A stretch of 64,000 nucleotides of DNA, taken from Eledone cirrhosa (Eukaryota). The number at the start of each line of letters is the position of its first letter. Position 1 is the first letter of the stretch. Made by a program: the position numbers and the translations under genes. Shown here in pieces: positions 14,701 through 41,334 of this stretch. The notes under the pieces were generated by a model. That model was not told where the DNA came from. It worked only from the letters and a program-made list of their open reading frames with translations, and did not search any database. The stretch is taken from contig OZ024742.1 of assembly GCA_964016885.1 (NCBI GenBank), positions 33,480,001 to 33,544,000 of the forward strand, read 5' to 3'.

Positions 14701-15800
14701 GTATCAAATATCAACAATACTTCATTTATTGTATGTGTATGTGTGTGTTGAGCTTCCAGTGCCAGATGTTTCAGTTGTTTGATCAATAAAGTAGCCTACT
14801 CATGAAATTAATGTACAAATGACAGAGCATTCCACAGATTCAGAAAGACACACTGTGTGACATGGCTGGCTCTTTGAATTCCAAGTACAATTCATTTTCT
14901 CCAGCTGAGTGGACTAGAGCAATGTGAAATAAAGTGTCTAGCTGAAGGACACTATGTACTGCCAGAAATAGAACTCATGATCGTTAGTTGAACACTCTAA
15001 TCACATATTTTCATATTGATTACACCTACTGTATATATTCAAATATATCTTATATCATTTTCCATGAATAGTCTAACCCATGTTAGAGTGGAAGATGGAC
15101 GTTAAACGATGATGATGATGATGATGCAATGTGAAAAGCTAGCATGCGACTTATCTACTGCACCTACAAAACCCAATTAAATATATGGCAGACTGTAAAT
15201 GTACATAAAAGGAAGATGTGACTTGTGCATGAGGATACACAGCATAAATATATTATAATGTATATATATTATAATAAATGCTCGGATTTATTCCTTAGAA
15301 TCTTTCTTTGAGCTTCTTATACAGATGATATTGCACATGTTTGAGATTTTCTCAAACATGACATCTATACTTTTGAATGTAATATATATATATAGTCATG
15401 GGCATCTCATCTTTTTCTCTGGCATTGTTGTACCAAATGATATCATGATGGTTGGATGTTCAGCATCCTGAGATCAGCTTTCAGGACTTCTGCCCATATC
15501 TACTTCTTTCATTAGGATTTCTATTCTCTTAGATAACTCTGTGAATATATATATGTATAGGAGTAGGCATTGCCTTGTTAAGTAGTTTTCTTTGCAATTA
15601 TGTGATTCCAGATTCTCGGTACTCTGGCCAGTCTCTTCTAATACAACCTTGAGTGTGTCCAAAAAAATGTGCAGAAGACTGTCAGAGACCTTAAAAATGG
15701 TATGGGGAGGAGTCGTGGGTGTTATCCGGCCCTCTCTGACTATGTCATATAAATTTATAAATGTGTGCATATTTTGAAATCTTTTTAATTTGGTTTATAG

Positions 15801-15956
15801 GCTGCCATCACCTGTTTGAATCAGATTCTATCCCTGAAAATATTAGAATTAAATTTTCAAAATTGAGTGGAGGGTCAGTTGATTTGACAAAAGATGAACA
15901 CTCTGGGATTGCCCAAATTACTTTGAATCAGCCCCACCATAAAAATGCTTTATCAG
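15801..15956 (+). CDS. ECHDC1: Ethylmalonyl-CoA decarboxylase copy 1, coding exon 2
   Basis: ttatag|...GGSVDLTKDEHSGIAQITLNQPHHKNALS G|gtgagt. Crotonase N-terminus, phase 1/1. Confidence 0.9.
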
Positions 15957-16091
15957 GTGAGTGGATAAACTATCACTTTGCTTTTATCAATACAAATGAA
16001 ATTCAGGTATATCACTATTTTTTGGCACTCTTAGTTCTAGACCCATGCCAGATTATTTCTTCTGCCGGACTGAATAATAGTTCACTACAGG

Positions 16092-16368
16092 CAAAGGCCT
16101 TGTTTCAGGGAGGTAGCAGGGGACAAGTCCCCACCTCTTTTTCAAACGTCTATATTTTACTTTTTGTCTATTTGATATAATAAATTCTTTTTAAGCTTAT
16201 TTTTTTATATCTGAACTTCATTTGAATATATAAAATTTAATTAGCGTAAAATTTTGCTTATGTGATAGGGTCCCAGAAAGGCACCATAAGCAATACTAAC
16301 ATGCTCCTTTAAGAATCAACAAATGTTGGTTTGTCCCCCTCACATTTTTAAGGTAAACGAGGCTCCTG
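16092..16368. mobile_element. hAT-type MITE (duplicated at 31697-31973)
   Basis: 8-bp TSD actacagg and imperfect TIR caaaggccttgttt/aaacgaggctcctg. Confidence 0.8.
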
Positions 16369-17671
16369 ACTACAGGTATACTATGATGTTGAAAACGTTC
16401 TCCCTGCTCTGCAACTATTATATGAAGGCGTAAATGTTTAAAACTAAATCATATACCACACGCTAACTGCTGAATGTAAATTAACTAGTCTGTTGGGTTG
16501 CAGAATAGCATCTGCTCATAATCATGTCTAAATTAAAAGATGTGCCAGGTCATCAGCTGCTGGGAAATCAGAGAGCGTGAATCGAGAGATATGTACCTAG
16601 AGAGAAAAGGAACATCATTTGTTTAGAGAGAAAGAGAGAGAGAATGTGTGTGACAGAAAGAGGGAAAAGATAAGATCACTCTCATCTAGTAACAATAATA
16701 ATGATTTCTACTATAGGCACCAAGCCAGCAATTTTGGAGGAAGGGAAATCTATTAAATTGACTCCAGTGCATTACTGGTACTTTATTTTATTGATCCTGT
16801 AAGGAGGAAAGGCAAAGCTAACCTTGGCGAGATTTGAACTCAGAATGTAACTTTATACCTCACAGCACGTTGTCCGACGCTCTACTTATTCTGTCAATCA
16901 ACCAATAATAATGATGATTTATAACTTAGGCTCAAAGCCACATATTTATAAGGGAGAAAACTGTCTATTTCATCAATCCAGTATTTGACTGGTATTTATT
17001 TTTGAGCTGAACAGAGTTAACTCCAATGGAGTTTGAATTCAGAACATAAAAAGATGTATTTAAATATTGCAAAGCACTTAATCCAGCAATAGATTATGTG
17101 CTTTACAATAGATTGTGTTTAATCTATTACTAACCTTTAAGCCATATAATTTCGACATTATAAGTATGATTGTGAAACATAAAAAGAACAACAGGTTTAT
17201 TTTGGAGTGGCAGATAGTTGATTTCTTTCAACTCTTCTTTAATAACCTCAGAAAGTCTAAATGGTACTTCCCCTAAAATTATAAACTTTTTGTATCTTGT
17301 GAAAAGAAAAACCAGTCTATTCTTCTGTAATATATTTATAAATGAAAACATTTTTCACTTAATTGTGAAAAAAAAAAGAAGAAAAATCAGACAATATCTT
17401 GTTCAGTAGGCATTAACACTTTTAAAATGAATCAGCCCCAACTGCCTTTGTTTCTATGTAGGAATTAACACTTTTAATATGAACCAGCCCCAAACTGCCT
17501 CTGTTTCTATGAAACAAAACTACCCAATTTAAAGAATTCTTACTTTAAATTAAGACTTTCCACATAGTTTTATATAGGAACTTTTTCTCATGTTACAAAG
17601 ATCATCTTAACCCTTTAGCATTTAAATTGGCCATATCAAGCCAGAATTCTCTCCCCTCTTTCTGTTCAAAC

Positions 17672-18712
17672 TGTGTTTGTGGAAGGAAGGGGAGTTGGTG
17701 TTAATGTGTTCTTTAATTCAGAGATGCAATGGTCGCACTTGTCACATTCTAACCTGTATACCATGTAGGCAACAATTAGTGTTGTAGATAGGGCAATTGG
17801 CTAGGGTGCATCCGTTAGCTTCACTGGCAGGTTGTCTTGTGGATAGGGATCTCCACAGGGAAGGTCCTAAGTGAGCAAGTCTGATATTGAGGCCCTCTCT
17901 CCTGATGGCTTTGCATATGGCATTGGTGGTGTCTTCGCTGAGATGTGGGATCAAGAGGAAGCAACTATTGTTTGCGTTGGTCCGGTCTCTGGGTCTGGCG
18001 TTTCACTGTGGGGTGGAGAAGGAAGCTGAGCAACCATTGATCTCCAACATCCTGTGGAAGTGTCTAAAATGGGTGGCTCTATTTGTAAAGTCGCTGCATC
18101 GGTTGCATATGTGAGCCATTTTGTTAAAGATGTACCCTCTTTTAGAGCTGTTGGAGAGGGCAGATTTGTAGTGGACAAACAGGTCCTTGCTGGCTGCTTT
18201 GAGGTAGAAATCTGTGTGGATTTGACTGCTTTCAGAGATGCTTGCTGAAAGATTAAAAAATCCTGTTGCCATTCTCCTTGGAGGATGTGGGGATGAGCAT
18301 ATCGTCCACATATCTAGTGAAAAAAGCACAGGTATTGCAGAAGTTGAGTACTCGGCATTCAAGTCTGTTCATGTAGAAAATGGCCAGTAAACCTGACAGG
18401 CTGGATCCCATGGGAAGTCCAGAAGTCTGTTGGTAGGTTTAGCCCAGGAAGCTGAAGAAGGCGTTGTTGACAATGATGGATAGGAGCTACTGGATGTCAG
18501 TGGTGGTGAGGCCGAAACAATCCAGGTTGTTGGAACTGACACATTCAATGAGTATGTCCACAGCCGGGAGTGCAGGTACCAATGTTTAGAGGGATATTAT
18601 GTCTAGGCTGAAGGCACACCTGTTGAATTTGAGGGTGTTAGGTTCAAGTTGGTTGAATCACTGGATGACTTCATTCAAGCTGTAGATGTGGCCTGTGAAG
18701 GTTGTCAACATG
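17672..18712 (-). mobile_element. Penelope-like element RT fragment in the ECHDC1 intron (partly deleted copy at 32943-33715)
   Basis: Degenerate FSLD, YQQTSGLPMGS, RYVDD-like and YLKAASKDLFVHYKSA motifs, then a C-x4-C motif. Confidence 0.75.
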
Positions 18713-19731
18713 TATATAAATATATATATATACTGTATATATATATATCATCACTGTTTAACATCCATTTTTCTATGCTAGCATGGGTTGGATGAGCTGT
18801 CATATTGTGGGCAATGCCAGTTCAGGTGACCATACAGAACTTTTGGCTTCGTTTCTACAGTTGGATGCCCTTCCTCATGCCAGCTTCATTTACAGTGTGG
18901 GCTGGGTGCTTTTTGCCGTGTCGCCATCATGACCACTTTATAGTGTGGGCTGGGTGCTTTTTGCTGTGTCGCCATCATGACCACTTTATAGTGTGGGCTG
19001 CATGCTTTTTGCCATGTCGCCATCACGACCACTTTATAGTGTGGGCTGCATGCTTTTTGCCGTGTCGCCATCACGACCATTTTATAGTGTGGGCTGGAAG
19101 CTTCACTGCATGCATACTTCAGCCTGTCCTCATGAGAGATGTATGGGGGTGGGTGATGTGGCATGGTGCATGCTATATATATATGCTTCAGATTCAGCCT
19201 GTGGGAAGTTGGGTTTTCTGTATTTCTGTGTAATTGTCTCTGAAAATCAATTAAAGTTGTTTATTATTTTTCCAATTTACAGGGAAATTCGTATTTTCTG
19301 ACATGTTTACAAACCTACATATTAAATATGTATATATTTATATACACATTCGTTCAGTCTCAGTTACCCACTCTATATGAATACAGATATAATTTTATTT
19401 ACACTTCAGCTGCTAGCACACTTCTTTATATATATATATATTGACAGTAGCACTAGTAAAATGTTTAAGCATTATGGTGGTGTATATGAGAGCAGGTACT
19501 ATATATATACTGTAAACATATGAGAGCCTTACTATGAAAGAATTTTTTTTTGTAACGAAAAATGATTTATCTCTATTTTTCTCTGTAAACACATCATAGA
19601 TTTGCCAGTAGCCATCAAGAATGCCAGATAGTGCTGTTTCAAGATTCGTTAATCTTCCACCAGTGACATTCACTCAACCAGTACTCACACACAGTATATG
19701 TTTTCACATACAGCCCAATTATATATATATA

Positions 19732-20081
19732 CAGTTGTCCCCTGGTATTCGCGGGGTTACGTTCGTAGAGCACCCACAAAGAGTGAAAAACTGCGAATAT
19801 TGGATGTGATCCATAAAAATGCCTATAAACGTCAAAATATAATGTAAAATATAATAAAAAAAGAGGGAGCATCTTATGTGAAAGGGCATCCAATAGGCTG
19901 GCAAATATGGTATATTGCTATTAACAATTTAGTGTTAAAAAATTTATATCTTGCCACGAAAAAAATCGTGCAAGTTATTTACAATTCTGCAAATATGCAG
20001 TGGTTTCCACAAACAATTATTAGTTGGGTTCTAAGGAAAATTCTACAAATAACCGGCACCGCGAATGCCGGAGATACACTG
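19732..20081. mobile_element. Tc1/pogo-type MITE (duplicated at 34790-35139)
   Basis: TA TSD. TIR cagttgtcccctggtattcgcgg/ccgcgaatgccggagatacactg. Confidence 0.8.
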
Positions 20082-20215
20082 TATAAATCAAACAATTGAC
20101 TGATGCTAAATATTATAATAGGTAAAAGATTCTGTTAATGATTGCTGTCTCCTTAATAATTCACAAATATTTTAGGGAAACAAAAGATGTTTTATTTGTT
20201 TGTTTTTTCTTTTAG

Positions 20216-20889
20216 GAAAGATGATGTTAGACCTTTTTGACATCATTAATGAATTAGAAAACTGGAAATCTGGTAAAGGAGTGCTGCTAGCTGGTGCTGC
20301 AAATACTTTCTGTTCTGGTGGGGATTTAAAGACAGTTGCAATGATTGCTGATTGGGGTGAAGAAATGTCATCTATGATGCAAAAGGCTCTCACTAAATTT
20401 AGTAGACTTCCAATTATTAGTGTAGCATTAATTGAAGGACTTGCTTTAGGAGGTGGTGCTGAGCTAACCACTGCTTGTGACTTTCGAATTATGTCAAAGA
20501 ATGCAAAGATTGGATTCGTTCAAGTTCACATGGGTGTGGTAAGTGGATGGGGTGGAGGTACCCGATTAGTCAAACTTGTTGGGCCCACTTCTGCATTAGA
20601 TTTATTCAGCACTGGGAAGGTAATTAATTCCACAACTGCATTGGAAATTGGTCTTGTTAACCATATTGTTGAAGAAGGTGAAAATGTCATGGAAACAGCT
20701 ATGGAATGGTTAAGTAAGAGATGCCATGGCCATGTTTCTGTTACAAGATCAATCAAATCAATGGTGAGCTATGCTGATACAGAACATCTTCAGTCGTCTT
20801 TAAATCATGAAAGGAAACTGTTTTCAAATCTATGGGGAGGCCCATTATTCCTCGAAGCTCTAAAGAAAAATATAAAACATAAATCCTAA
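20216..20889 (+). CDS. ECHDC1: Ethylmalonyl-CoA decarboxylase copy 1, last coding exon
   Basis: ttttag|GKMMLDL...FCSGGDL...ALGGGAELTTACDFR...GWGGGTRL...LWGGP. Enoyl-CoA hydratase fold, ECHDC1-type motifs. Confidence 0.92.
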
Positions 20890-23800
20890 TGATATTTTTT
20901 AAAATGTTCATTGATTTTCATTTTTATTTAATTTATTATTTCTGAATGGACATTTTAAGAGAGAGACGATTTCATATATAGAAGGGAAACTGTTACAAAA
21001 AATTGTGTACAGCAGATAATGTATATATGTAGTTGTTTCTTGGTATGAAATTGGGTTGAAATATATTGTTGCATTTTGGGAGGTTCTTACTACCAACACC
21101 TCACCCACCAAAGTCCCAAGCCCACACTGTAGTGTGGTCATAATGGCAACATGACAAAAAGCTCCCAGTCCACACTGTAAAGTGATCATGTAGGTGTCAT
21201 GACAAAAAGCACCAAGTCCACACTGTAAAGTGGTCGTGTAGGAGTCACAAAAAAAGCACCCAGTCGACACTGTAAAGTGGTCATGTAGGTGTCACGAGAA
21301 AAAGCACCCTGTAGTCACTGTAAAAGTACATTCATATTGAAAATTGTCTGTTTTATAGAGTTTATAATATTTATAGATTTTGTAGAATATTTGAAGCAGA
21401 AATAGAAAAAAAGTGCATACATTGTGTACACTGAATAAACACATGATGTATACATGCATGAACAAATGTACAAGTGTATATCAACGGTATAGCAGAGGTA
21501 TTTTTACTCTTTTACTAGTTTCACTCATACTAAAGGGTTGTCATTTATGTCTATCCCTGTAACATTGTCATCATTTTTTAACATCGTTAACATCTATTTT
21601 TCCACATTTGCATGGGTTAGACACACACACACTCATATATGAGGTGATAAAGCTGACCTTGCACAATTGCACCTTTCAACGGTGATGATACAGGACCAAG
21701 ATCTCTGGCGTTATGCAGTAATACAGAAGACCCACTTTCCAATGAGCACAGGCTGAAGCATATATCTAGTATGCACCACCTTCACCTCCATCCCCCATCC
21801 ATACACCTCCCACGTCCTACCACACCGTCTCTCTCACGTCCATATACCCACCTCCTCAATCCCCACACACCTCTCCCACCAAAGTCCCCAGTCCACACTG
21901 TATAGTGTTTGTGATGGTAACACAACAAAAAGCACCCAGTCCACACTGTAAAGTGGTCATGTAAGTGTCACAACAAAAAGCACCCAGTCCACACTGTAGA
22001 TGTGGTTGGCATTAGGAAGAGCATCCAGCTGTAGAAACCAAACCAAAATCAGTTTTGTTTGAACAAGACATTGTCACCTGACCTGGCCTATCTCACAATG
22101 GGACAACTCGTCTAACCCATGCTAGTGTTGAATAATGGATGTTAAATGGTGATGATAATGATATTTGAAAATTGAATTGAATTGAGTTAATTAGCAGCTT
22201 TTATTGGGTCTTTTCACTAATAACGAGGCATAAAAAAGGATAAAGATCCGCTAATCCTTGTGGAGTCGTAGAGGTGCCGTCAAATGGCATGTCTAGGGCA
22301 CTTTTAAACCTGGTGGAGCCCAACCTTCTCCAGGTCTGAACACTGCCAACTTTTTTCTATAGAGGAAGAATCGACCTCAGTAGTGGACTGGTACTTTTTT
22401 TTATCAACCTCGAAAGGATGAAAGGCAAAGTTGACCCCAACGGGATTTGAACTCAGAGTGTGCAGTGAGGTGGGATGAGTAAGCGTTCTATCCGAGGTCT
22501 TAACAACTCTGCCAATTCACCGCCTATAACAGACAAAATGGGTATCCATTCTTTTTCTGCTATGTGGGCTTTATTAACTATTTTCTGTCATAAAAATTAG
22601 GGGGAAAGCTGCTGATTCAATTCAATTTTCAAATTCCAATCCCCACTGTCTTCTAAACAACATGTGATTTGTTTAAACAAAGACATACGCTCATGTATGT
22701 GTGTATGTTCTAGCAGAACTGGTCAGATCTAGAGGAGTAAACCTCAATAAATATCCAGCTTGTCTCATAGTTACTAATAGTTCATGCAACAACCATCAGT
22801 TTAATTGGATGACCTCAGCATCATGAAGACCAGTGGCTTCGCTGATGATGGGCAATTATTTCAACAATGGGTTGGCACAACTGCTCCAGTTAGTAGAGAA
22901 ATCTATGATTATGCAGGTGTGGCAAGCCACATATATTCTAGACATTAGAGAAAACAATGCTTCACCTTTGATGGATAGATGGCTTAAGAAGAAGAGAAGA
23001 AGTGTTTATGATGGGCTTCCACTCAGTTTGCGTCCACCAGTTTACCTGCCCAATGTGTCATGAAAAAGGACTGAACATGGAACCACATAGTTGTGAAGTG
23101 AGCATCTTACCCCCACAGCAATGCTTGCAAGGGTAAACTATATTGAATATCACATTATACCATCTATTGTATGGCTGGCTTGGAGGTTTACTGCAAAGAA
23201 GTAAGTCAAATGTAAGCATTCCTGATGAAGAACCTGGTTTGGAATGACAAGGTCAAGAACATCATCCTCATCATCATCATGTCTGCTTTCATGCTGGCAT
23301 AGGTTTGACAGGTCATCAAGCCAATTTTGCTGATATATTCCAACAACTTTACAGAGTGTATTGGGTGCACTTTATCGTGACACCAACAATACCACTTTAC
23401 AGAATGTACTGTGGGCATTTTATCATGGCACCAGCATGATAATATACACCCACTACATTCTGTAAGATGGTAGTGATGGATAAAATGCACTCAGTACACT
23501 TTAAAAAAGCCAAATTCCTCAAAATGGAAGAGATATTGATGTAGCAAAACCCCTTCTGGCTCAAGCATATAAAAAAATAGAGCATCTTTATTTAACAAGA
23601 CAAATACTCTACTCACAGCTGCCAGTATAACTTTAGGTTAACATTCAGATAAATTGAAAAAGAAAAGACAAGTGAGAGAAAAAAGGTATGGAATTTTATC
23701 TAAATTTCTGAAATGAAAAGTTATTACTAGTACATAACATGGTGATTTACAGAGAGAAGAGGTAATACTGTATGGTGGTAAAAGGGGATGTGTAGGTGTC

Positions 23801-23903: not shown

Positions 23904-25675
23904 GTTATCTGAGCATTTGTAATGTTATTTATGTATATATTTAAAACATATTTGTTATGTTATTCTACTGTAAATTTATTTATATGCTCTGTTTATATTT
24001 TCATTCTGAAAGAATTGCAAACGATTTGTAATGTTATTTATACGACTGTGAATAAAATTAGTAAGATCGCTCATTACAGTGTTTGTGGTTTGATAGATAT
24101 TGTTGGGAAATGTCGTAATCTATATATATAAAACTGTGGTTGTCTGTCTGTCTGTCTATCGATTTTTGGCACACATCTCCTCTTAGAATCTCTCACGGAA
24201 TTGCACCGAAATTGCTATACTTGTACATTGAGCCCTAGCGAAGACATCGGAAAAAAAAAATTTCAAATTGACCCACCCTATGTGACGAAATCGAATATAA
24301 TGTATCGATTTTTGAGCGTAAGTGATCAGTTATTTCCCTTTGTTCTGTTTACATTGAGCGTCTGCGTGCAAAAATTAAAAAAATTACGCTGGCTTTCTCA
24401 GCGTTTAAAATGACATTAACACAATACACGATTTAAAGACTACGTAAAACAAGCCTTTTAAAACAATATTTTTACTTGAAAATAAGTCTATTTAAAAACT
24501 ACTTAAAACAAGCAAATATTTCGTAAAAAAAAGCAAAAATTATATAAGTTTATATAAAATATATGTATCTGTAAATTTCGTTAGGCGTGCAGACAGACAG
24601 TCGTGCAGAGAGGTGATATAGGCGTGCAGACAGACAGTCGTGCAGAGAGGTGATATAGGCGTGCAGACAGACATAACTGATAATTTGGTTACGCTAATGT
24701 TTTTCTCTGCGTTGCAGTGTTTACATTTTCGATCTTTGTTAATAAATAACCAGTGCAGTTTTTATCCCCAGCATCCTCTTTTGTTATAACATTCGGGTTA
24801 TCGTTATGTTTTCTTAACTTCATAAGGCATATTGTTGGTTGAGGGAATATTAATCAAAAACACCACATGCAAGTCTGCACAGTAGACATTACAGTTTTTA
24901 AGCCAAAAAAGAAACTTAACATTGTAACTTTAACACAGCTACTGAGCGACCCCGAGCAACGCCGGGCTTTACTGCTAGTTAGTTATATTCTTATTTCAGA
25001 ATTAAAAACTAAAAATATATTTAAATATATATATTTTTTAACATTAAAATGTATTAAACAAATTATTCACCCCAAAATAGCTTCGTTGTCTTCAACAGAG
25101 GTCGATTCCAAAACATCGATAAAGAATGAAAGGTTAACTTAAATTAGGTGTGATTTTACTTTTGAATCGGCCGAGGGGAGAATAAGCTAATCTTGAAAAT
25201 TTATATCAGCAACATTCACTAGAAAGGTTCAATTTATTGTTATTAACATCCTTATTAAAATTATTAAATAGGCGCGTTGCGATCATCAACAAATAAATTT
25301 CATAAAAGCAACGAAACTGGTATAAACTCACCACGGTTCGTAAATTAGATTTATCTTACCTGGATCTTACCACGATCAGTAAATTGTATTTATCTCTCTT
25401 GGCTGGCAGCTCTATTGTCAACGAGCACTTGCAGAAGCACGCACCTGAGTTAGAATGACTATCTCAACGCCCCGAGCTCGCTTTCCTCCAGAGTTACTGG
25501 TTCTCTTCTATTGTCCTGGACATTCAAGTAGAAACGTGACCTGAAAATTTCAACTATTTATGTAAACAAAAACTGCAAACATGTATCTATTTCAAATTAA
25601 TTGTCAATGCACATAAACATTTCTGGTGATAGTCAGTCGCTTGATCGAGTAAGTTACTTTACACAATTTATACAT
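23904..25675 (-). repeat. Inverted copy of ~11499-12443 (putative promoter region), interrupted by a Helitron
   Basis: 23904-24118 is the reverse complement of ~12241-12443, and 24979-25675 is the reverse complement of ~11499-12240. Confidence 0.92.
24119..24978 (+). mobile_element. Non-autonomous Helitron
   Basis: 5' TC, 3' hairpin cccgagcaacgccggg then CTAG. Inserted between A and T with no TSD, compared with the empty site at ~12240. Internal ~37-bp tandem repeat at 24582-24673. Confidence 0.9.
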
Positions 25676-25677
25676 CA

Positions 25678-26210
25678 CTAGCAGTGGTACCCAGCGTTGC
25701 ACGGTATAAGGTATTTTGGAACGCGGGCCGCTAACAGACCTAATCGTGGAAAAACTGCATACCTGGACAATATGTAATGAAAATAAACTGAATACTCTGA
25801 TGGCTGGATAATCTTTAAGATTTTCCTCGATGAAGCAGGAAAAATGCAGGTTTTCACCTAATGCAGGCCCTAGGGGATCAAGAAAATGAGTTTTTTTTAT
25901 GTGCATAATATGCCTTGAAATTTCGGGAAAATCGGCTAGACGTAACGCCTCCAAAAAGCCCTAAAAGCTGAAAATATGAAGGTTTTCACCTAAAGTGGGT
26001 CCTAGGGGATCAAAAAGTTGAATTTTTTTGTGCATAACTGAAATATGAGTAATACACATGTAAAGTTTGAAAAAAGTTGGTTGGGTACTTCTCGAGTTTT
26101 AGGGATTCAAACTCACAGACACACAGACAGACATCCTCAGGGAAGTGACGTAATGCAGACAGCCAGACATACAGACAAATATTATAAGGGCGCGACGTTA
26201 TATGTATGCA
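25678..26210 (-). mobile_element. Helitron-like element, 3' end at left
   Basis: Reverse complement ends ccgtgcaacgctgggtaccactgCTAG|t. (CAGA)-like microsatellite near the other end, and an internal ~60-bp duplication. Confidence 0.7.
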
Positions 26211-26212
26211 TC

Positions 26213-28590
26213 TGTGGCGACGTGGTTAGTCAGTCTAGTCACTACTTCTGATCAGATCCGAGAATAGCCCTTAGAAGGACTGTTATCGCATACGGTCTGA
26301 TCAGATCTGAAGATAGCCCTTAAAAGGATTGTTGTCGCATATAGCCCTTAAAAGAACTGTTGGGGATGGACAGACGAAAGCACAAGTTGAAAGGACGAAG
26401 CAAGGCGAGATGTAAATTCGATCAGCTATTTATTTCCACATGAAGCGACGATACGAGATACAAGGCGTGTGAGTGACAAAGCGTGGCAGAGTAAAGGAAC
26501 AACGATACGCTAGCTGACTCTGCCAAAAGTCGACTGGCGAAAGTGTTAGGAACCATTCTATTTATACAGGAACAATCCTTTGTTGTTTAGTCGATGTATA
26601 GGCGTTTATCCTGGTAGGTTCTTATTCTGGTAGGTTCTAATTCTGGTAGGTTCTAAGGGTTCTTTTGTTTCACGTTGAAGTAGCTAGCTAACAGGTAGAT
26701 GGCGCTGTATATTTCACAGCTGTTATTTCCGGTGGCTGTACATTAGCCCCTGCCAGTTCTTTTGTACAACAAAAGAGCGAAATATCGTATAGTAATGGGC
26801 CAGTGGTGCATTCGTCATGACAATAGCCCCAGGAGTGTCCAGCACGTTGTGAAATTTTGTGATAATCGAGTACAGGACAGAGTCGATGTAGAGATGATAT
26901 GGCAAGATGTGTGTGTCAGGAAGAGAAAAAAGAAATAAACTATAAAATGACTTTGACCAGATTTATGCAGGCGTGATGAATGAGCCTGTTGCAATTTCGG
27001 TTGAGCTGCCTGTGAATTGCGTGACAAAAAGTCTAACTGTGCAGTGAAGATAACCGTAATGTGTGAACTGAATGGCCGTAAGCATGCTGCCTAAAAGTAA
27101 CAGTTTGCTCCACAGCATATGACTTGAGCGAATGCATGTGGTAAAAAAATAGCGAGGCATTCTCGAGCTATTGAGTGAATGTGTGCGTGAAAAAAAAAGG
27201 CCAGTGTTTTGAGGATGCGATTTGTGAAATGCGTGATCAAAGAGAAAACATTTTGTAGTATAAGAGTTAGAGGGACACAAATATCTATTGCTCAGTGTAT
27301 GAACCAAAAGGTGAAACAAACGTGGTTTTGAAGTGTGCATGAAAAACAGGATATGTACACGCCTTGTATGTATATAAAAATTATGGTAATTACACAATCA
27401 ATGTTACAGAACATGAAAAATACAAATTTTGCAAAACAAGAGAGAGAAGAAAGAAAAAAATGTTATACACAATGATATACACAATGTTTGTTCTTAAATA
27501 GAGTTTGTAATAAATAATGTTCATAATAAATAATGTTCTTCGTGACATGAGCACATGGTCACTAAAAATTGCAATTGTTCAAGCAGAAAGTTCATTGTAT
27601 TTGAAACTGGAAATAGTAAACACAAGAAAAATGGAAATGTTTTGCACGAAGAATGATTAAGAAACTCACTTGAGGTTAACGGTAATTCACATATTGTGCC
27701 AACTTGGCGGGCCAATGGACGCGTCGTCTGCTTCTCGTGACTGGAGATGAAACAGGTGGCTCGCTGGGACAGCAATCTGTTGGAGTTTCTGGTGTAGAGA
27801 CTGTAACAGTATCCATGATGGCTTTTTTTTAATCTGTCCACGCTGACAGAATTCTGTTTACCATCTAGATCGAGAATAAAATATTTCGGATATTTTTTTA
27901 GAACACGATAAGGGCCAGGATATGGAGGTCGAAGATGAGCTGAGATGGTGTCGTTTCGCACGAAAACGTGTGTCCAATCATCAATGTCTGAAGGTACGTG
28001 TGTGGCCGTGTTCTGTTGACAGGTGTGTAGCAGGAGTTGCCTCCCTTGTTGTGACACTCACAACCCCAATAAACAGGAAGTAGAACCCTTTGTAACTTCC
28101 GGTCAGAACCCTATAAAACTAACAACGTTAAGCTCTCTATCTCTCAATTCGCCTTTTCGGTCAGGCGCCTCCTGGCTTTTGCCAGGAGTCTTCACTCAGG
28201 CGTGTGTAACCCTGGCAACCAAGCAGTAACTAATAACTTTGTTTCATTCTTTCATCTACTCATTGACATGTCAACTATACTGTTCTAAATATTCACAAAT
28301 TGTTTATAAAATATTATACACACAAACCATGTCTCCTTGTTACATTCATACACACTAGTATTTTGTTATAGGTGCTTGCAGGAGCAAGGTGAGACATATA
28401 TTGTCGAAGACGGTGCACGTATGATCCTGGGTCTGGAACATCCTGAGGAGAGATGGGAGCAACCATCTGACCAGGTAGAACCAGGGTGGTGCCGTACACT
28501 AATTCTGCAGGTGTGTGTCCGAATTCCTCTTTAACGGTGGATCGAATGCCCAGAAGGATGAGTGGTAGGTATTCAAACCAGTGGGTCTTG
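26213..28590 (-). mobile_element. Gypsy LTR retrotransposon remnant (integrase C-terminus, 3' UTR, 3' LTR ~26213-26742)
   Basis: WFEYLPLILLGIRST...TPAELVYGTTLVLPG...HVFVR...LRPPYPGPYRVL...VSVDRLK (GPY/F domain). PPT ctggcaggggctaa precedes a TG...CA LTR with TATA and AATAAA. Truncated at the start of unit B. Confidence 0.88.
28026..28370 (+). mobile_element. Solo LTR nested in the Gypsy integrase
   Basis: TGTAGCA...TGTTATA with GGTG TSD. Removing it restores the frame HLAPASTCQQNTATH. Confidence 0.88.
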
Positions 28591-28795
28591 TGAGAAAGAA
28601 GACATGCACTCTTAATTGCATACTACAACATTATTACATATCTCCATGTCATCTTTGAAATAAAATAACAAAAGCAATTATTTACAAATAATATTACACG
28701 TACACTGTTGACAATGACGTTCAGTGCAAGTCATCAATGGTTTTTTTTTAATGATATAATTTGTTTTATTCACAGTTGTATGAAAATGTAATAAT

Positions 28796-28914
28796 TGTTT
28801 CTACTTTAGGCACAAGGCCAGCAATTACCCAGTGCATTACTGGTACTTTATTTTATCTACCCCGTAAGGATGAAAGGCAAAGTCAACCTCGGCGGGATTT
28901 GAACTCAGATCGTA
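28796..28914 (-). mobile_element. 5'-truncated SINE, specific to unit B
   Basis: 16-bp TSD atgaaaatgtaataat. Empty site at ~13310. Confidence 0.9.
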
Positions 28915-30217
28915 ATGAAAATGTAATAATATAACGTTTACAGAACAAAGGCACAAACAAATATAATATATACAAAAGAAAGGGAAAGGAAGAAAGAAAG
29001 AGAAAGCAGGAAATACACACATCTAGGATCACATACACTGGCAGGCAAAAGGGGATGGACAACCGAGACGCTACCAGAGCAAAAGATAACAACATTACTA
29101 GGAGCACTAAGAAACCTCTAATAATTATTGCCTAAAAAATTATAATTTTTTAGGCAAACCAGCATGCTCACAGCATTACCTCGGGTGATGGCGAGGCTGA
29201 TGCTCTGGAACAACCAAGCGCCCTCATGAGCATCACCAGTTACTTCTGTTAGGTGGGCTGCCAGTGAAGATAAGAATCTCACAGTCAGTAGTTCAACTTC
29301 CCCAAACGTCTCAACTGCCACAGGCTGGAAAATGTAGTTGGGCAACAGATCACGGTATTTGCTGCAGATGCTGTAGCTCTCACCCTTACTGCCGCATCCA
29401 GGATGTGTGAAGAAGCAAAAACTGTCACAACCGAGATAAGGCATCTGCCTTTTGATCAGGGACACAGGGCAAGAACGTCAGTTCTTTTCCCATTAATTCT
29501 GGACAACCCAGATGGTTCCAAGATTGAGGGGATGTTTGCCTGGGCCAAAGCTCTCTTGAAGATGAGGTTTAGCTCTGTGTAACGCACGAGGTGACTGGCA
29601 TTCAGGTGGCAAGAGTGACTGTGAAGTTGAGGAGTTTGCCACATCGAGACCTCAAACCCATACAGACGTCGGCTCCCACTCTGAGGGCAATGGAGATGTG
29701 AAGCTTGTCCAAGCTGAGTAGGTCACCAATGTTAGCCACGGGTAGGGCATCAACCCAGTCACCTGAGTATTAACTTGGTCATACCCTGTTCATCTGTGGG
29801 GAAACTCTGAACACCATATGTGTTTCTCTTGGCTATACCTTGGCTTTTTAGTAGCCTACCTGGATTTGTTTTTCCTTTTTGGAGTCTTTTAAGAGGGAGT
29901 GTCTTTTGGGGTTGACTAATTCCTTGCTAGTGGAATTTAATAAATAGAGACTGCAGAAGCCTATTGTGTGAGTATGTGTGTTTATGCTTGTGGCTGTGTC
30001 TTGTAAAGTAATAGTTCAACAAAAAGAGATCAATAAAATAAGTACCAGGCTTGAGAAATAAGTACTGGGGTCAGCATTATTGACTAAAAGAGTAAAAGGC
30101 AGTGTCCCAGTATAGCCAGTCTGATGACTGAAACCAGTAGAAGAAGAATAGAACTTGTTTTTTTTGCTGTTGTTGATCAATTTTTTTTAATGTATTTTAT
30201 TTGATAGATCTGTTACT

Positions 30218-30305
30218 ATGTTGAAATCAGTCATCTTCCGTGGAAAGACAGCAGGAATTCATGGTTTATGGAATTATGGAGTGATAAAACCAATGATATA
30301 TAATG
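30218..30305 (+). CDS. ECHDC1: Ethylmalonyl-CoA decarboxylase copy 2, coding exon 1
   Basis: Identical to 14613-14700, including splice sites. Confidence 0.68.
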
Positions 30306-31405
30306 GTATCAAATATCAACAATACTTCATTTATTGTATGTGTATGTGTGTGTTGAGCTTCCAGTGCCAGATGTTTCAGTTGTTTGATCAATAAAGTAGC
30401 CTACTCATGAAATTAATGTACAAATGACAGAGCATTCCACAGATTCAGAAAGACACACTGTGTGACATGGCTGGCTCTTTGAATTCCAAGTACAATTCAT
30501 TTTCTCCAGCTGAGTGGACTAGAGCAATGTGAAATAAAGTGTCTAGCTGAAGGACACTATGTACTGCCAGAAATAGAACTCATGATCGTTAGTTGAACAC
30601 TCTAATCACATATTTTCATATTGATTACACCTACTGTATATATTCAAATATATCTTATATCATTTTCCATGAATAGTCTAACCCATGTTAGAGTGGAAGA
30701 TGGACGTTAAACGATGATGATGATGATGATGCAATGTGAAAAGCTAGCATGCGACTTATCTACTGCACCTACAAAACCCAATTAAATATATGGCAGACTG
30801 TAAATGTACATAAAAGGAAGATGTGACTTGTGCATGAGGATACACAGCATAAATATATTATAATGTATATATATTATAATAAATGCTCGGATTTATTCCT
30901 TAGAATCTTTCTTTGAGCTTCTTATACAGATGATATTGCACATGTTTGAGATTTTCTCAAACATGACATCTATACTTTTGAATGTAATATATATATATAG
31001 TCATGGGCATCTCATCTTTTTCTCTGGCATTGTTGTACCAAATGATATCATGATGGTTGGATGTTCAGCATCCTGAGATCAGCTTTCAGGACTTCTGCCC
31101 ATATCTACTTCTTTCATTAGGATTTCTATTCTCTTAGATAACTCTGTGAATATATATATGTATAGGAGTAGGCATTGCCTTGTTAAGTAGTTTTCTTTGC
31201 AATTATGTGATTCCAGATTCTCGGTACTCTGGCCAGTCTCTTCTAATACAACCTTGAGTGTGTCCAAAAAAATGTGCAGAAGACTGTCAGAGACCTTAAA
31301 AATGGTATGGGGAGGAGTCGTGGGTGTTATCCGGCCCTCTCTGACTATGTCATATAAATTTATAAATGTGTGCATATTTTGAAATCTTTTTAATTTGGTT
31401 TATAG

Positions 31406-31561
31406 GCTGCCATCACCTGTTTGAATCAGATTCTATCCCTGAAAATATTAGAATTAAATTTTCAAAATTGAGTGGAGGGTCAGTTGATTTGACAAAAGAT
31501 GAACACTCTGGGATTGCCCAAATTACTTTGAATCAGCCCCACCATAAAAATGCTTTTACAG
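31406..31561 (+). CDS. ECHDC1: Ethylmalonyl-CoA decarboxylase copy 2, coding exon 2
   Basis: Same as copy 1 except it ends KNAFT-G rather than KNALS-G. AG/GTGAGT intact. Confidence 0.88.
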
Positions 31562-34500
31562 GTGAGTGGATAAACTATCACTTTGCTTTTATCAATACAA
31601 ATGAAATTCAGGTATATCACTATTTTTTGACACTCTTAGTTCTAGACCCATGCCAGATTATTTCTCCTGCCGGACTGAATAATAGTTCACTACAGGCAAA
31701 GGCCTTGTTTCAGGGAGGTAGCAGGGAACCAGTCCCCACCTCTTTTTCAAACGTCTATATTTTATTTTTTGTCTATTTGATATAATAAATTCTTTTTAAG
31801 CTTATTTTTTTATATCTGAACTTCATTTGAATATATAAAATTTAATTAGCGTAAAATTTTGCTTATGTGATAGGGTCCCAGAAAGGCACCATAAGCAATA
31901 CTAACATGCTCCTTTAAGAATCAACAAATGTTGGTTTGTCCCCCTCACATTTTTAAGGTAAACGAGGCCCCTGACTACAGGTATACTATGATGTTGAAAA
32001 CGTTCTCCCTGCTCTGCAACTATTATATGAACGCGTAAATGTTTAAAACTAAATCATATACCACACGCTAACTGCTGAATGTAAATTAACTAGTCTGTTG
32101 GGTTGCAGAATAACATCTGCTCATAATCATGTCTAAATTAAAAGATGTGCCAGGTCATCAGCTGCTGGGAAATCAGAGAGCGTGAATCGAGAAATATGTA
32201 CCTAGAGAGAAAAGGAACATCATTTGTTTAGAGAGAAAGAGAGAGAGAATGTGTGTGACAGAAAGAGGGAAAAGATAAGATCACTCTCATCTAGTAACAA
32301 TAATAATGATTTCTACTATAGGCACCAAGCCAGCAATTTTGGAGGAAGGGAAAGTCTATTAAATTGACTCCAGTGCATTACTGGTATTTTATTTTATTGA
32401 TCCTGTAAGGAGGAAAGGCAAAGCTAACCTTGGCGAGATTTGAACTCAGAATGTAACTTTATACCTCACAGCACGTTGTCCCACGCTCTACTTATTTTGT
32501 CAATCAACCAATAATAATGATGATTTATAACTTAGGCTCAAAGCCACATATTTATAAGGGAGAAAACTGTCTATTTCATCAATCCAGTATTTGACTGGTA
32601 TTTATTTTTGAGCTGAACAGAGTTAACTCCAATGGAGTTTGAATTCAGAACATAAAAAGATGTATTTAAATATTGCAAAGCACTTAATCCAGCAATAGAT
32701 TATGTGCTTTACAATAGATTGTGTTTAATCTATTACTAACCTTTAAGCCATATAATTTCGACATTATAAGTATGATTGTGAAACATAAAAAGAACAACAG
32801 GTTTATTTTGGAGTGGCAGATAGTTGATTTCTTTCAACTCTTCTTTAATAACCTCAGAAAGTCTAAATGGTACTTCCCCTAAAATTATAAACTTTTTGTT
32901 TCTTGTGAAAAGAAAAACCAGTCTATTCTTCTGTAATATATTTGGTGGTGGCTTCGCTGAGATGTGGGATCAAGAGGAAGCAAGTATTGTTTGCATGGGT
33001 CTGGCGTTTCAATGTGGGGTCAAGAAGGAAGCTGGGCAACCATTGATCTCCAACATCCTGTGGAAGTGTCTAAAATGGGTGGCTCTATTCGTAATGTCGC
33101 TGCATCGGTTGCATATGTGAGCCATTTTGTTAAAGATGTACCCTCTTTTAGAGCTGTTGGGGAGGGCAGATTTGTAGTGGACAAACAGGTCCTTGCTGGC
33201 TGCTTTGAGGTAGAAATCTGTGTGGATTTGACTGCTTTCAGAGATGCTTGCTGAAAGATTAAAAAATCCTGTTGCCATTCTCCTTGGAGGATGTGAGGAT
33301 GAGCATATCGTCCATATATCTAGTGAAAAAAGCACAGGTATTGCAGAAGTTGAGTACTCGGCATTCAAGTCTGTTCATGTAGAAAATGGCCAGTAAACCT
33401 GACAGGCTGGATCCCATGGGAAGTCCAGAAGTCTGTTGGTAGGTTTAGCCCAGGAAGCTGAAGAAGGCGTTGTTGACAATGATGGATAGGAGCTACTGGA
33501 TGTCAGTGGTGGTGAGGCCGAAACAATCCAGGTTGTTGGAACTGACACATTCAATGAGTATGTCCACAGCCGGGAGTGCAGGTACCAATGTTTAGAGGGA
33601 TACTATGTCTAGGCTGAAGGCACACCTGTTGAATTTGAGGGTGTTAGGTTCAAGTTGGTTGAATCACTGGATGACTTCATTCAAGCTGTAGATGTGGCCT
33701 GTGAAGGTTGTCAACATGTATATAAATATATATATATATACTGTATATATATATATATCATCACTGTTTAACATCCATTTTTCTATGCTAGCATGGGTTG
33801 GATGAGCTGTCATATTGTGGGCAATGCCAGTTCAGGTGACCATACAGAACTTTTGGCTTCGTTTCTACAGTTGGATGCCCTTCCTAATGCCAGCTTCATT
33901 TACAGTGTGGACTGGGTGCTTTTTGCCGTGTCGCCATCAAAACCACTTTATAGTGTGGGCTGGGTGCTTTTTGCCGTGTCGCCATCATGACCACTTTATA
34001 GTGTGGGCTGGGTGCTTTTTGCTGTGTCGCCATCACGACCACTTTATAGTGTGGGCTGCATGCTTTTTGCCATGTCGCCATCACGACCACTTTATAGTGT
34101 GGGCTGCATGCTTTTTGCCGTGTCGCCATCACGACCATTTTATAGTGTGGGCTGGAAGCTTCACTGCATGCATACTTCAGCCTGTCCTCATGAGAGATGT
34201 ATGGGGGTGGGTGATGTGGCATGGTGCATGCTATATATATATGCTTCAGCTTCAGCCTGTGGGAAGTTGGGTTTTCTGTATTTCTGTGTAATTGTCTCTG
34301 AAAATCAATTAAAGTTGTTTATTATTTTTCCAATTTACAGGGAAATTCGTATTTTCTGACATGTTTACAAACCTACATATTAAATATGTATATATTTATA
34401 TACACATTCGTTCAGTCTCAGTTACCCACTCTATATGAATACAGATATAATTTTATTTACACTTCAGCTGCTAGCACACTTCTTTATATATATATATATT

Positions 34501-35273
34501 GACAGTAGCACTAGTAAAATGTTTAAGCATTATGGTGGTGTATATGAGAGCAGGTACTATATATATACTGTAAACATATGAGAGCCTTACTATGAAAGAA
34601 TTTTTTTTTGTAACGAAAAATGATTTATCTCTATTTTTCTCTGTAAACACATCATAGATTTGCCAGTAGCCATCAAGAATGCCAGATAGTGCTGTTTCAA
34701 GATTCGTTAATCTTCCACCAGTGACATTCACTCAACCAGTACTCACACACAGTATATGTTTTCACATACAGCCCAATTATATATATATACAGTTGTCCCC
34801 TGGTATTCGCGGGGTTACGTTCGTAGAGCACCCACAAAGAGTGAAAAACTGCGAATATTGGATGTGATCCATAAAAATGCCTATAAACGTCAAAATATAA
34901 TGTAAAATATAATAAAAAAAGAGGGAGCATCTTATGTGAAAGGGCATCCAATAGGCTGGCAAATATGGTATATTGCTATTAACAATTTAGTGTTAAAAAA
35001 TTTATATCTTGCCACGAAAAAAATCGTGCAAGTTATTTACAATTCTGCAAATATGCAGTGGTTTCCACAAACAATTATTAGTTGGGTTCTAAGGAAAATT
35101 CTACAAATAACCGGCACCGCGAATGCCGGAGATACACTGTATAAATCAAACAATTGACTGATGCTAAATATTATAATAGGTAAAAGATTCTGTTAATGAT
35201 TGCTGTCTCCTTAATAATTCACAAATATTTTAGGGAAACAAAAGATGTTTTATTTGTTTGTTTTTTCTTTTAG

Positions 35274-35947
35274 GAAAGATGATGTTAGACCTTTTTGACA
35301 TCATTAATGAATTAGAAAACTGGAAATCTGGTAAAGGAGTGCTGCTAGCTGGTGCTGCAAATACTTTCTGTTCTGGTGGGGATTTAAAGACAGTTGCAAT
35401 GATTGCTGATTGGGGTGAAGAAATGTCATCTATGATGCAAAAGGCTCTCACTAAATTTAGTAGACTTCCAATTATTAGTGTAGCATTAATTGAAGGACTT
35501 GCTTTAGGAGGTGGTGCTGAGCTAACCACTGCTTGTGACTTTCGAATTATGTCAAAGAATGCAAAGATTGGATTCGTTCAAGTTCACATGGGTGTGGTAA
35601 GTGGATGGGGTGGAGGTACCCGATTAGTCAAACTTGTTGGGCCCACTTCTGCATTAGATTTATTCAGCACTGGGAAGGTAATTAATTCCACAACTGCATT
35701 GGAAATTGGTCTTGTTAACCATATTGTTGAAGAAGGTGAAAATGTCATGGAAACAGCTATGGAATGGTTAAGTAAGAGATGTCATGGCCATGTTTCTGTT
35801 ACAAGATCAATCAAATCAATGGTGAGCTATGCTGATACAGAACAACTTCAGTCGTCTTTAAATCATGAAAGGAAACTGTTTTCAAATCTATGGGGAGGCC
35901 CATTATTCCTCGAAGCTCTAAAGAAAAATATAAAACATAAATCCTAA
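35274..35947 (+). CDS. ECHDC1: Ethylmalonyl-CoA decarboxylase copy 2, last coding exon
   Basis: Intact ORF, with DTEQL in place of DTEHL in copy 1. Confidence 0.9.
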
Positions 35948-36104
35948 TGATATTTTTTTAAATGTTCATTGATTTTCATTTTTATTTAATTTATTATTTC
36001 TGAATGGACATTTTAAGAGAGAGACGATTTCATATATAGAAGGGAAACTGTTACAAAGAATTTTGCACAGCAGATAATGTATATATGTAGTTGTTTCTTG
36101 GTAT

Positions 36105-36513
36105 TGTAGCAAGATTTGCCTGCCTTGTTACGATTACATCACCAGTAGCGCTCTCTAGACAGGAAGTAGCTGGAGTTACTTCCCGTTGAGGTTGCAGAGC
36201 CTTCTTTGTCACTTCCTGGGACTTCCTTTGTCACTTCCTGGGACCCTATAAAGGAGACAGCTTTCAGCTGTCTCCCTCTCTTTTAACCTGCCTGGCCCCT
36301 CGACCAGGCGCGTTCGCCGAGGCTATACTCTCTGGCAACCTGAACATGGTAATGTAAAGACCTCTTGTTCTAATGTGCGCTGACCAGTCAAAACGGTAAT
36401 ACAACTAACTTTAATTCATTCTTTCACCTCTCTTGGCATGTCAACTATTCTGCTCTACATAGCTCAATCTTGTTAAATAAACATCGTACATACAACCCAG
36501 TGTCCCTGTTATA
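36105..36513 (+). mobile_element. Solo LTR, specific to unit B, downstream of the ECHDC1 copy 2 stop codon
   Basis: TGTAGCA...TGTTATA with GTAT TSD. Empty site at ~21043 in unit A. Contains TATAAAA and AATAAA. Confidence 0.9.
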
Positions 36514-36584
36514 GTATGAAATTGTGTTGAAATATATTGTATTTTGGGAGGGTTTTACTACCAACTCCTCACCTACCAAAGTCC

Positions 36585-36890
36585 CAAGCCCACACTGTAG
36601 TGTGGTCTTGATGGCAACATGACAAAAAGCTCCCAGCCCACACTGTAAAGTGGTCATGTAGGTGTCATGACAAAAAGCACCAAGTCCACACTGTAAAGTG
36701 GTCATATAGGTGTCACGAGAAAAAGCACCAAGTCCACACTGTAAAGTGGTCATGTAGGTGTCATGACAAAAAAGCACCCAGGTCACACTGTAAAGTGGTC
36801 ATGTAGATGTCATGACAAAAAGCACCCAGTCCACACTGTAAAGTGGTCATGTAGGTGTCACGAGAAAAAGCACCCTGTAGTCACTGTAAA
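36585..36890 (+). repeat. ~42-bp minisatellite in an RTE-tail-derived repeat (also 21120-21323, 18890-19095, 33900-34153)
   Basis: Unit ccagtccacactgtaaagtggtcatgtaggtgtcatgacaaaaagcac-like. Copy number differs between units A and B. Confidence 0.85.
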
Positions 36891-38354
36891 TGTGGTTGGC
36901 TTTAGGAAGGACATCCAGCTGTAGAAATGAAGCCAAAATCTGTTCTGTATGAGCAAGACATGGTCACCTGACTCAGCATTTCTCACAACAGAACAAATTG
37001 TCTAACCCATGCTAGTGTGGAAAAATGGACGTTAAATGGAGATGATGGTGATGATGCTGATTTCATTTCACTTCAGTTATATCTATCAATTAGTTCCTAA
37101 GTCAGTTGATTAAATATAATCAATGCATCTGTTTTAAATTGGCATTATGATCCTACCAAAGTACATTCATATTGAAAATTGTCTTTTATGTCTATCCCAG
37201 TAACATCGTCATCATTTTTTAACATCGTTAACATCTATTTTTCCACATTTGCATGGGTTAGACACACACACACACACATATATGAGGTGATAAAGCTGAC
37301 CTTGCACAATTGCACCTTTCAACGGTGATGATACAGGACCAAGATCTCTGGCGTTATGCAGTAATACAGAAGACCCACTTTCCCATGAGCACAGGCTGAA
37401 GCATATATCTAGTATGCACCACCTTCACCTCCATCCCCCATCCATACACCGCCCACGTCCTACCACACCGTCTTTCTCACGTCCATATACCCACCTCCTC
37501 AATCCCCACACACCTCTCCCACCAAAGTCCCCAGTCCACACTGTATAGTGTTTGTGATGGTAACACAACAAAAAGCACCCAGTCCACACAGTAATGTGGT
37601 CATGTAGGTGTCACAACAAAAAGCACCCAGCCCACACTAGATGTGGTTGGCATTAGGAAGAGCATCCAGCTGTAGAAACCAAACCCAAATCAGTTTTGTT
37701 TGAACAAGACATTGTCACTTGACCTGGCCTATCTCACAATGGGACAACTCGTCTAACCCATGCTAGTGTTGAATAATGGATGTTAAATGGTGATGATAAT
37801 GATATTTGAAAATTGAATTGAATTGAGTTAATTAGCAGCTTTTATTGGATCTTTTCACTAATAACGAGGCATAAAAAAGGATAAAGATCCGCTAATCCTT
37901 GTGGAGTCGTAGAGGTGCCGTCAAATGGCATGTCTAGGGCACTTTTAAACCTGGTGGAGCCCAACCTTCTCCAGGTCTGAACACTGCCAATTTTTTTCTA
38001 TAGAGGAAGAATCGACTTCAGTAGTGGACTGGTACTTTTTTTTATCAACCTCGAAAGGATGAAAGGCAAAGTTGACCCCAATGGGATTTGAACTCAGAGT
38101 GTGCAGTGAGGTGGGATGAGTAAGCGTTCTATCCGAGGTCTTAACAACTCTGCCAATTCACCGCCTATAACAGAAAAAATGGGTATCCATTCTTTTTCTG
38201 CTATGTGGGCTTTATTAACTATTTTCTGTCATAAAAATTAGGGGGAAAGCTGCTGATTCAATTCAATTTTCAAATTCCAATCCCCACTGTCTTCTAAACA
38301 ACATGTGATTTGTTTAAACACAGACATACACTCATGCATGTGTGCATGTGTGTG

Positions 38355-39172
38355 TATAGCGAGATCTGTCCATGCCTTGAACCTTGGGTGACACCTAAAG
38401 GTCAAACTCTAGGTCATCACCCTCTTGGTGTGAAGAGGTTCATGCGTGGGCTATCCCCTAAAGGTGGGAGACAGAAAGTGACAGGTATATAAAGCCTATA
38501 TTTTCCCACCACAGAAACAGAGATCGGAGCACCACGATACAGACCAGCCATGTGAAAGATTCACCGCTATCTTCAGGCCCCAGAGGTCTACAGACATACA
38601 GAGCGATCGGAGCAGTACGCTATTACAAGCTATGTGAAAGATTCACCGCTACCTTCAGGCCCCAGAGGTCTACAGACATACAGAGCAATCGGAGCAGTAC
38701 GCTATTACAAGCTATGTGAAAGATTCACCGCTACCTTCAGGCCCCAGAGGTCTACAGACATACAGAGCAATCGGAGCAGTACGCAATTACAAGCTATGTG
38801 AAAGATTCACCGCTACCTTCAGGCCCCAGAGGTCTACAGACATACAGAGCAATCGGAGCAGTACGCTATTACAAGCTATGTGAAAGATTCACCGCTATCT
38901 ACAGGCCACAGTGGTCTACAGTCAACTATAGACCATTCAGAGGTCTACATACCATTACTCTCTCTCTCTCTTGGTCTCAGACTACACCAGCCTCATGAAC
39001 CAACAACAAAATAACATTGTCAACCTTCGCAACTAATGGTAATATTTTATTGTTCTTTTTGACTGAAGTGAAGTAAACCTTTATATATAAACTAAATCAG
39101 CCATTCTTGTTATTACATTAACAACCATGTTATAATCATTCTAATAACAACTACTAATACCTCTTCGTTAAA
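38355..39172 (+). mobile_element. Solo-LTR-like insertion with an internal 82-bp tandem array, specific to unit B
   Basis: Absent at ~22700 in unit A. TGTG flanks, TATATAAA at ~38486, repeat units starting at 38551, 38633, 38715, 38797 and 38879. The 3' part resembles window positions 1-112. Confidence 0.75.
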
Positions 39173-39986
39173 TGTGTGTGTATGTTCTAGCAGAACAGGT
39201 CAGATCTAGAGGAGTAAACCTCAATAAATATCCAGCTTGTCTCATAGTTAGTAATAGTTCATGCAACAACCATCAGTTTAATTAGATGACCTGAGCATCA
39301 TGAAGACCAGAGGCTTCGCTGATGATGGGCAATTATTTCAACAATGGGTTGGCACAACTGCTCCAGTTAGCAGAGAAATCTATGATTATGCAGGTGTGGC
39401 AAGCCACATATATTCTAGAACATCATCATCATGTCTGCTTCCATGCTGGCATAGGTTTAACAGATCATCAAGCCAATTTTGCTGATATATTCCATATTTC
39501 AGCATGATTCCTAATGCTGGATGCTCTTCCTAAAGCCAACCACTCTACAGAGTGTATTGGGTGCACTTTATTGTAACACCAACAATACCACTTTACAGAA
39601 TGTACTGTGGATATTTTATCATGGCACCAGCATGATAATATACACCCACTACATTCTGTAAGATGGTAGTGATGGATAAAAGCACTCAGTACACTTTAAA
39701 AAAGCCAAATTCCTCAAAATGGAAGAGATATTGATGTAGCAAAACCTCTTCTGGCGCAAGCATATAAAAAAATTTATTTAACAAGACAAATACTCTACTC
39801 ACAGCTGCCAGTATGACTTTAGGTTAAAATTCAGATAAATTGAAAAAGAAAAGATAAGTGAGAGAAAAAAGGTATGGAATTTTATCTAAATTTCTGAGAT
39901 GAAAAGTTATTACTAGTACATAACATGGTGATTTACAGAGAGAAGAGGTAATACTGTATGTTAGTAAAAGGGGATGCGTAGGTGTC

Positions 39987-41278: not shown

Positions 41279-41334
<56 letters not shown>

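Follow-up and report, generated by a model that had tools for sequence, protein, structure and literature searches.

The described systems closest to the locus analysed here each resemble it in part. Excerpts of the report on human HYDIN2 describe how a promoter brought next to an incomplete duplicate rescued it (PMC5345166), passages of a study of cephalopod protocadherin clusters describe lineage-specific duplication homogenised by gene conversion (PMC9068888), and A-to-I hyper-editing of inverted-repeat double-stranded RNA is, in parts of two accounts, very high in octopus (PMC5625713; PMC9068888). On the locus itself, which lies in a stretch of 64,000 nt of the Eledone cirrhosa genome (hereafter the window; contig OZ024742.1, positions 33,480,001 to 33,544,000), a literature search found nothing. 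The window holds one ECHDC1 gene with its promoter region (P), a second ECHDC1 copy without one and, between the two, an inverted copy of that region (P'). We read it as a new example of duplication mechanisms already known, and as a compact case of a promoterless duplicate that would sit within another gene's intron and compete for its promoter, in a lineage-specific octopod FAAH cluster that by homology would degrade endocannabinoids.

As in the HYDIN2 excerpts, the duplicate is promoterless, about 99% identical to its source and inserted between repeats downstream of a duplicated promoter block that is likely older. Unlike HYDIN2 as described there, copy 2 of ECHDC1 keeps a whole open reading frame, its insertion is local (5-15 kb), and P' is a copy of ECHDC1's own two-way promoter with an intact candidate host gene; the locus offers the exon and acceptor geometry for a candidate fusion transcript, the feature that defines the HYDIN2 type, and we do not class it with that type. 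Like the cephalopod clusters in the passages cited, the FAAH trio groups together and shows exon-wise mosaic identity, whereas, compared with those protocadherins, the cluster is small, metabolic and in inverted orientations, and its conversion-like tracts take in a promoter. The likeness to octopus hyper-editing, so far as the cited parts describe it, lies in intronic RNA whose clustered changes are dense and all A>G, and which has a long, nearly perfect complement close by; the difference is that the repeat is a two-copy promoter and intron duplication rather than a transposon, with the complement 13 kb off or on the opposite strand.

Table 1. Features in and around the window, numbered from its first letter; window-equivalent positions extend that numbering beyond its ends.
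Feature	Position	Strand	Remark
FAAH2	window-equivalent -70685 to -34945; contig positions 33409309-33445055	+	tail-to-tail with FAAH1
FAAH1 coding exons 2-6	926..10272	-	gene runs on left of window, 10266 to about -27219
Degenerate partial copy of FAAH exon 2 in FAAH1 intron 1	10373..10462	-	
P: head-to-head promoter region and start of ECHDC1 intron 1	11499..12443		promoter role predicted from position
Unit A: ECHDC1 copy 1 body	13122..23800	+	coding exons 14613-14700, 15801-15956, 20216-20889; 305 aa
Inverted copy of 12242-12443 (distal ECHDC1 intron-1 stub)	23904..24119	-	
High-copy insert	24120..24979	+	TC...CTAG ends, subterminal hairpin
P': inverted copy of 11499-12241	24980..25675		
Hyper-edited contig, run X3	25114..25317	-	24 letters differ; the 18 listed ones all read T>C on the plus strand, A>G on the minus strand
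Putative FAAH3 intron 1	25649..64000, continuing to window-equivalent 80495	+	splice predicted
Young multi-copy repeat	26247..28591	-	interrupted 28037-28370; cut off at unit B junction
Unit B: promoterless ECHDC1 copy 2	28590..39986	+	coding exons 30218-30305, 31406-31561, 35274-35947; 305 aa, intact
FAAH3 coding exons	window-equivalent 80502-119080	+	all GT-AG

P carries two opposed splice donors 347 nt apart, FAAH-type on the minus strand (exon end 11526) and ECHDC1-type on the plus strand (11872/11873), in a CpG-rich stretch (CpG observed/expected 1.13, with 1.11 in P'), and its head-to-head reading comes from these donors rather than from mapped starts. Self-BLAST of the window aligns 11499-12244 with 25675-24976 (88% over 747 columns) and 12232-12443 with 24129-23904 (92%), both inverted, the copy being broken by a high-copy insert of about 850 bp (about 24120-24979), which we take to be Helitron-like. 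Both donors of P' are intact, the ECHDC1-type one on the minus strand (~25331) and the FAAH-type one, ATCGA/GTAAGT, at 25648/25649 on the plus strand. The original prediction placed such an inverted promoter region upstream of an ECHDC1 copy that itself starts without promoter or first exon, and in these structural respects it holds: the inverted copy spans 25675-23904; unit B, which lacks exon 1 and the ancestral promoter, opens at 28590-28592, equivalent to 13122-13124 of unit A, and closes at 39986, equivalent to 23800; the donor at 25649 stands 4.5 kb before the copy-2 acceptor (TTTGATAG, then 30207/30208); the core indels noted near 25505-25525 and 25600-25620 are found as 20 nt at ~25522 and 10 nt at ~25614; and the peptides KNAFT and DTEQL do mark copy 2.

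The ECHDC1 protein has a crotonase domain (PF00378, E 6.5e-35) and matches O. bimaculoides ECHDC1 at 82%; its best matches bear the name ECHDC1 (ethylmalonyl-CoA decarboxylase), and its ATG sits in exon 2. Four codons differ between the copies, three with amino-acid changes (L80F, S81T, H272Q) and one silently, and units A and B differ by 92 substitutions in 9243, or 0.6-3.5% by block. Zero substitutions fall within 14011-15951 (1.9 kb) and 19193-20723 (1.5 kb), possibly through conversion between the copies; distal blocks differ by 1.7-3.5%, and about 585 bp of copy 1 intron 3 (17338-17922) is missing from copy 2.

Copy number in the genome bears out the duplication. The segment 11500-12240, which the original prediction allowed might turn out to be a high-copy repeat, is not one: among eight candidates, all of them scored, two are full-length and the other six span 50-70 nt (E about 1e-5), a 20-nt donor pattern occurs exactly twice with at most one mismatch allowed, and only 12300-12460 of the P region is repetitive. 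The last ECHDC1 exon likewise occurs only twice. In DNA runs X1, X2 and X4, which are one sample and may be the source of the assembly, contig depth is 15.5-22.4 where A and B share sequence vs 8.6-13.7 over FAAH1, an approximate doubling that argues against a haplotype artefact or false duplication, which we reject; one X1 contig with copy-2 letters has a depth of 10.7.

A genome-wide amidase search gave three matches near the window, and exon mapping in the flanking sequence identified three FAAH1-like genes, FAAH1, FAAH2 and FAAH3, all intact with 584 aa and 17 coding exons each; relatives of FAAH1 in Octopus and Argonauta are named fatty acid amide hydrolase 1. FAAH3 scores above the PF01425 cut-off, and its 584-aa frame contains the motifs SLKE, GGSSGG and GTDxGGSIR, whose Lys and two Ser we take to be the catalytic triad. 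In the tree, the three genes cluster apart from the Octopus and Argonauta paralogs with moderate support (86/99), and their exons form a mosaic of 0-49% difference (dS 0.21-0.32, with 0.32 between FAAH1 and FAAH3) in which FAAH1 and FAAH2 share 653 bp at 100%. The 123-nt last coding exon is identical in all three genes, and exon 7 is identical between FAAH2 and FAAH3. There is a hint in O. bimaculoides and Argonauta hians that a FAAH paralog is linked to ECHDC1 there as well, a linkage that is perhaps old.

FAAH3 begins 55 kb downstream of P', outside the window, with an acceptor at window-equivalent 80495 (contig position 33560495) that matches FAAH1's at all but 1 of 26 nt and an ATG 6 nt into the exon; so close a match at the start of the first coding exon calls for an upstream non-coding exon. 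P' is most likely FAAH3's, since it is the sole homolog of FAAH1 exon 1 and is correctly oriented; no third copy of P was found in the 384 kb around FAAH3 (nhmmer) or elsewhere in the genome. FAAH3 is further tied to P because a partial exon-2 copy is common to intron 1 of FAAH1 and of FAAH3 (E 3e-16 and 4e-21); a search of the 6 kb upstream of FAAH2 did not find it. We therefore favour, with modest confidence, a reading in which FAAH3 takes its promoter and its non-coding first exon from P', by way of a predicted splice from 25648 to 80496, ECHDC1 copy 2 is a low or silent passenger in FAAH3 intron 1, and a leftward stub RNA takes part in an edited duplex. The proposal that P' drives copy 2 stands as to geometry, as a sense FAAH-type exon 1 lies upstream and capture is possible, but not as to the owner, for which FAAH3, intact and on the plus strand, is more natural. 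Weighing against FAAH3, a P' transcript must skip the acceptor at 30208, pass nine AATAAA before the acceptor, and pass two AATAAA and one ATTAAA after the copy-2 stop. Moreover, FAAH2 is just as intact, yet a search of the 170 kb upstream of it recognised neither a P copy nor an ECHDC1 remnant; a paralog can thus dispense with P, and FAAH3 could too, which leaves a gap in the argument from need.

Expression was approached through X3, a single run from a sample other than that of the DNA runs, which we take to be RNA from its 88 Mb assembly, a spliced-looking contig and an edited contig; the spliced-looking one enters the last ECHDC1 exon carrying 155 letters from elsewhere, exon 3 being 156 nt. 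X3 covers 14 of the 16 A/B diagnostic sites listed, with the copy-1 letter at every one of them and the copy-2 letter at none, as read from Logan contigs, which drop minor variants; at the same 16 sites, DNA run X2 has copy-2 letters at 16. In this one run, copy 2 would accordingly account for no more than a minor transcript. Contigs of copy-1 type extend to 23863, at the border with the inverted copy, and may derive from either strand. On P', X3 holds two records, an unspliced P-derived contig of FAAH1 intron 1 and the edited contig of 207 nt. No join or spliced loose end was seen at 25648, nor were the FAAH1 and copy-1 exon-1 joins that served as positive controls; among 15 joints listed at 86% likeness, in a repeat-flooded search, none ran exon to exon; and X3 lacks cover at 25330-25605 and an unedited P-type contig over 11873-12240, positive controls again missing.

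The absence of copy-2 letters at the 14 covered sites among those listed counts against the first alternative, which we regard as unlikely: that P' is FAAH3's by descent and that the nearer acceptor and polyA sites of copy 2 now take much of its output. FAAH3 without decay speaks against it too, as does a P'-specific ATG at 25607 which, if transcribed from upstream, would open a 45-codon out-of-frame ORF across the ECHDC1 start. What gives such a capture its appeal is that donor 25649 and acceptor 30207 are both intact only 4.5 kb apart, that the ATG in exon 2 would allow a complete protein, that AATAAA signals follow the copy-2 stop at 36476 and 39223 while a FAAH3 transcript must pass polyA signals, and that HYDIN2, in the excerpted report, offers a precedent (PMC5345166). 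If true, copy 2 would come under FAAH-type regulation and FAAH3 would be reduced, a metabolite-repair enzyme and one FAAH paralog being coupled through splicing choice. ATGs at 25581 and 25607 occur in P' and are absent from P; given a transcription start upstream of it, the one at 25607 would, in a FAAH3 transcript, run for 14 codons and stop at the junction.

The edited contig begins 14 nt beyond the donor of ECHDC1 type in P' and comes from P' rather than P, with P' letters at 4 of 4 discriminating sites (25159, 25163, 25172, 25179). Changes affect 18 of 45 T vs 0 of 80 non-T in this one contig of depth 3.1; none of the T>C changes is present in DNA run X2, another sample, and G precedes 2 of the 18 edited A and 4 of the 27 unedited ones, so that depletion is not evident. 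The pattern of this single contig is that of A-to-I-type hyper-editing of minus-strand RNA, with this stretch of P' transcribed leftwards. A local hairpin is rejected as the cause, the edited strand folding into no stable one (z +0.89), and the only long complement of that strand in 264 kb is P (97%). The RNA could originate in P' or in the repeats to its right (25676-28590). In the reading in which FAAH3 owns P', the half that faces ECHDC1 would continue to drive leftward transcription into the intron stub, and ADAR would edit the stub RNA in a duplex with either read-through from ECHDC1 copy 1 or the antisense of P. The contig suggests that a two-copy promoter duplication, beyond transposons, feeds cephalopod hyper-editing; if neither capture nor duplex editing holds, this is an ordinary young duplicate heading to silence.

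We find it doubtful that capture and editing combine in a switch, in which exon 1 of P' splices either over 4.5 kb to copy 2 or over 55 kb to FAAH3, so that one promoter yields one or the other of two lipid enzymes, and antisense from the other half, in an ADAR-edited duplex, damps ECHDC1 copy 1. We hold as just as doubtful that the FAAH-facing half of P' is dead, with FAAH3 on an unrelated nearer promoter, copy 2 silent and the minus-strand RNA arising from the ECHDC1-facing half or the repeats at 25676-28590. FAAH2 does manage without a P copy, six indels mark the core and 55 kb of repeats offer alternative promoters, but the donor is preserved along with its flank (26 of 27 intronic nt), CpGs are kept (20 in one region vs 23 in the other), and the intron-1 feature common to FAAH1 and FAAH3 links FAAH3 to P.

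Divergence between P and P' is patchy: the core differs by 19 substitutions in 173 (11%) plus those six indels, the start of the FAAH intron by 1 in 27, the ECHDC1-type exon by 7 in 141 and the ECHDC1 intron side by 11 in 553 (2.0%), all unpolarised in this two-copy comparison, as the runs tried for an outgroup gave no match (X5) or one chance piece of 35 nt (X6), and identical runs of 227 and 177 nt are matched by none of 10000 shuffles. Divergence in the promoter core is about 11-fold that between the ECHDC1 copies (p=1e-13) and exceeds that of the most diverged A/B block (p=0.002, from approximate counts); the intron side at 2.0% compares with 1.0% for A/B (p=0.048). Because its core is far more diverged than the ECHDC1 copies, P' likely predates copy 2; against this, the intron side lies near the A/B range and would fit a joint origin with B. 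Identical tracts beyond chance inside diverged paralogs, in P/P' as in the 653 bp of FAAH1 and FAAH2, are a sign of interlocus conversion, and old paralogy with conversion would explain the patchy divergence of P/P', A/B and the FAAH genes. That P' and unit B arose together, by duplication then inversion or by one template switch, with a fast-diverging core and with P' facing FAAH3 by chance, is very improbable: P' does start about 100 nt past the end of unit A, and the intron side alone would fit (2.0%, with 1.7-3.5% in distal A/B blocks), but the core, at 11% and six indels vs 1% (p=1e-13), would need about tenfold faster change, the multi-copy repeat between P' and B is severed by B's junction, and FAAH3 would be left without a homologous first exon.

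With P' assigned to FAAH3, we infer that an older duplication would have carried FAAH, together with the two-way promoter and ~570 nt from the start of ECHDC1 intron 1, into an orientation inverted relative to FAAH1; that conversion between the inverted repeats would have held parts near-identical while the core drifted; that FAAH3 intron 1 would then have grown by repeats; and that the ECHDC1 body (13122-23800) would finally have been copied into it, its ends within repeats. The junctions of unit B fit such a later insertion into an existing intron. The left one, with 2 nt of microhomology, cuts the young multi-copy repeat between P' and B, the right one adjoins a fragment at 39987, and both ends lie inside repeats. 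By eye, we take the repeat (26247-28591) to be LTR-retroelement-like and the fragment to be LINE-like; the former has no Pfam family, and its missing remainder was not found elsewhere in 264 kb. Pfam returned nothing for 7 of 10 ORFs, both integrase-like pieces among them. At 46522-49875, an open frame of 1118 aa, in which Pfam recognises endonuclease, reverse transcriptase and zf-RVT domains, reads as a young LINE within the putative FAAH3 intron 1, and self-BLAST gives inverted-repeat pairs of 98-99% identity at 55187-55410/56166-55942 and 46156-46309/56824-56671. P and P' (11499-12443 and 23904-25675) themselves form inverted repeats flanking ECHDC1 copy 1, and a crossover between them would flip that gene and swap its outer promoter half.
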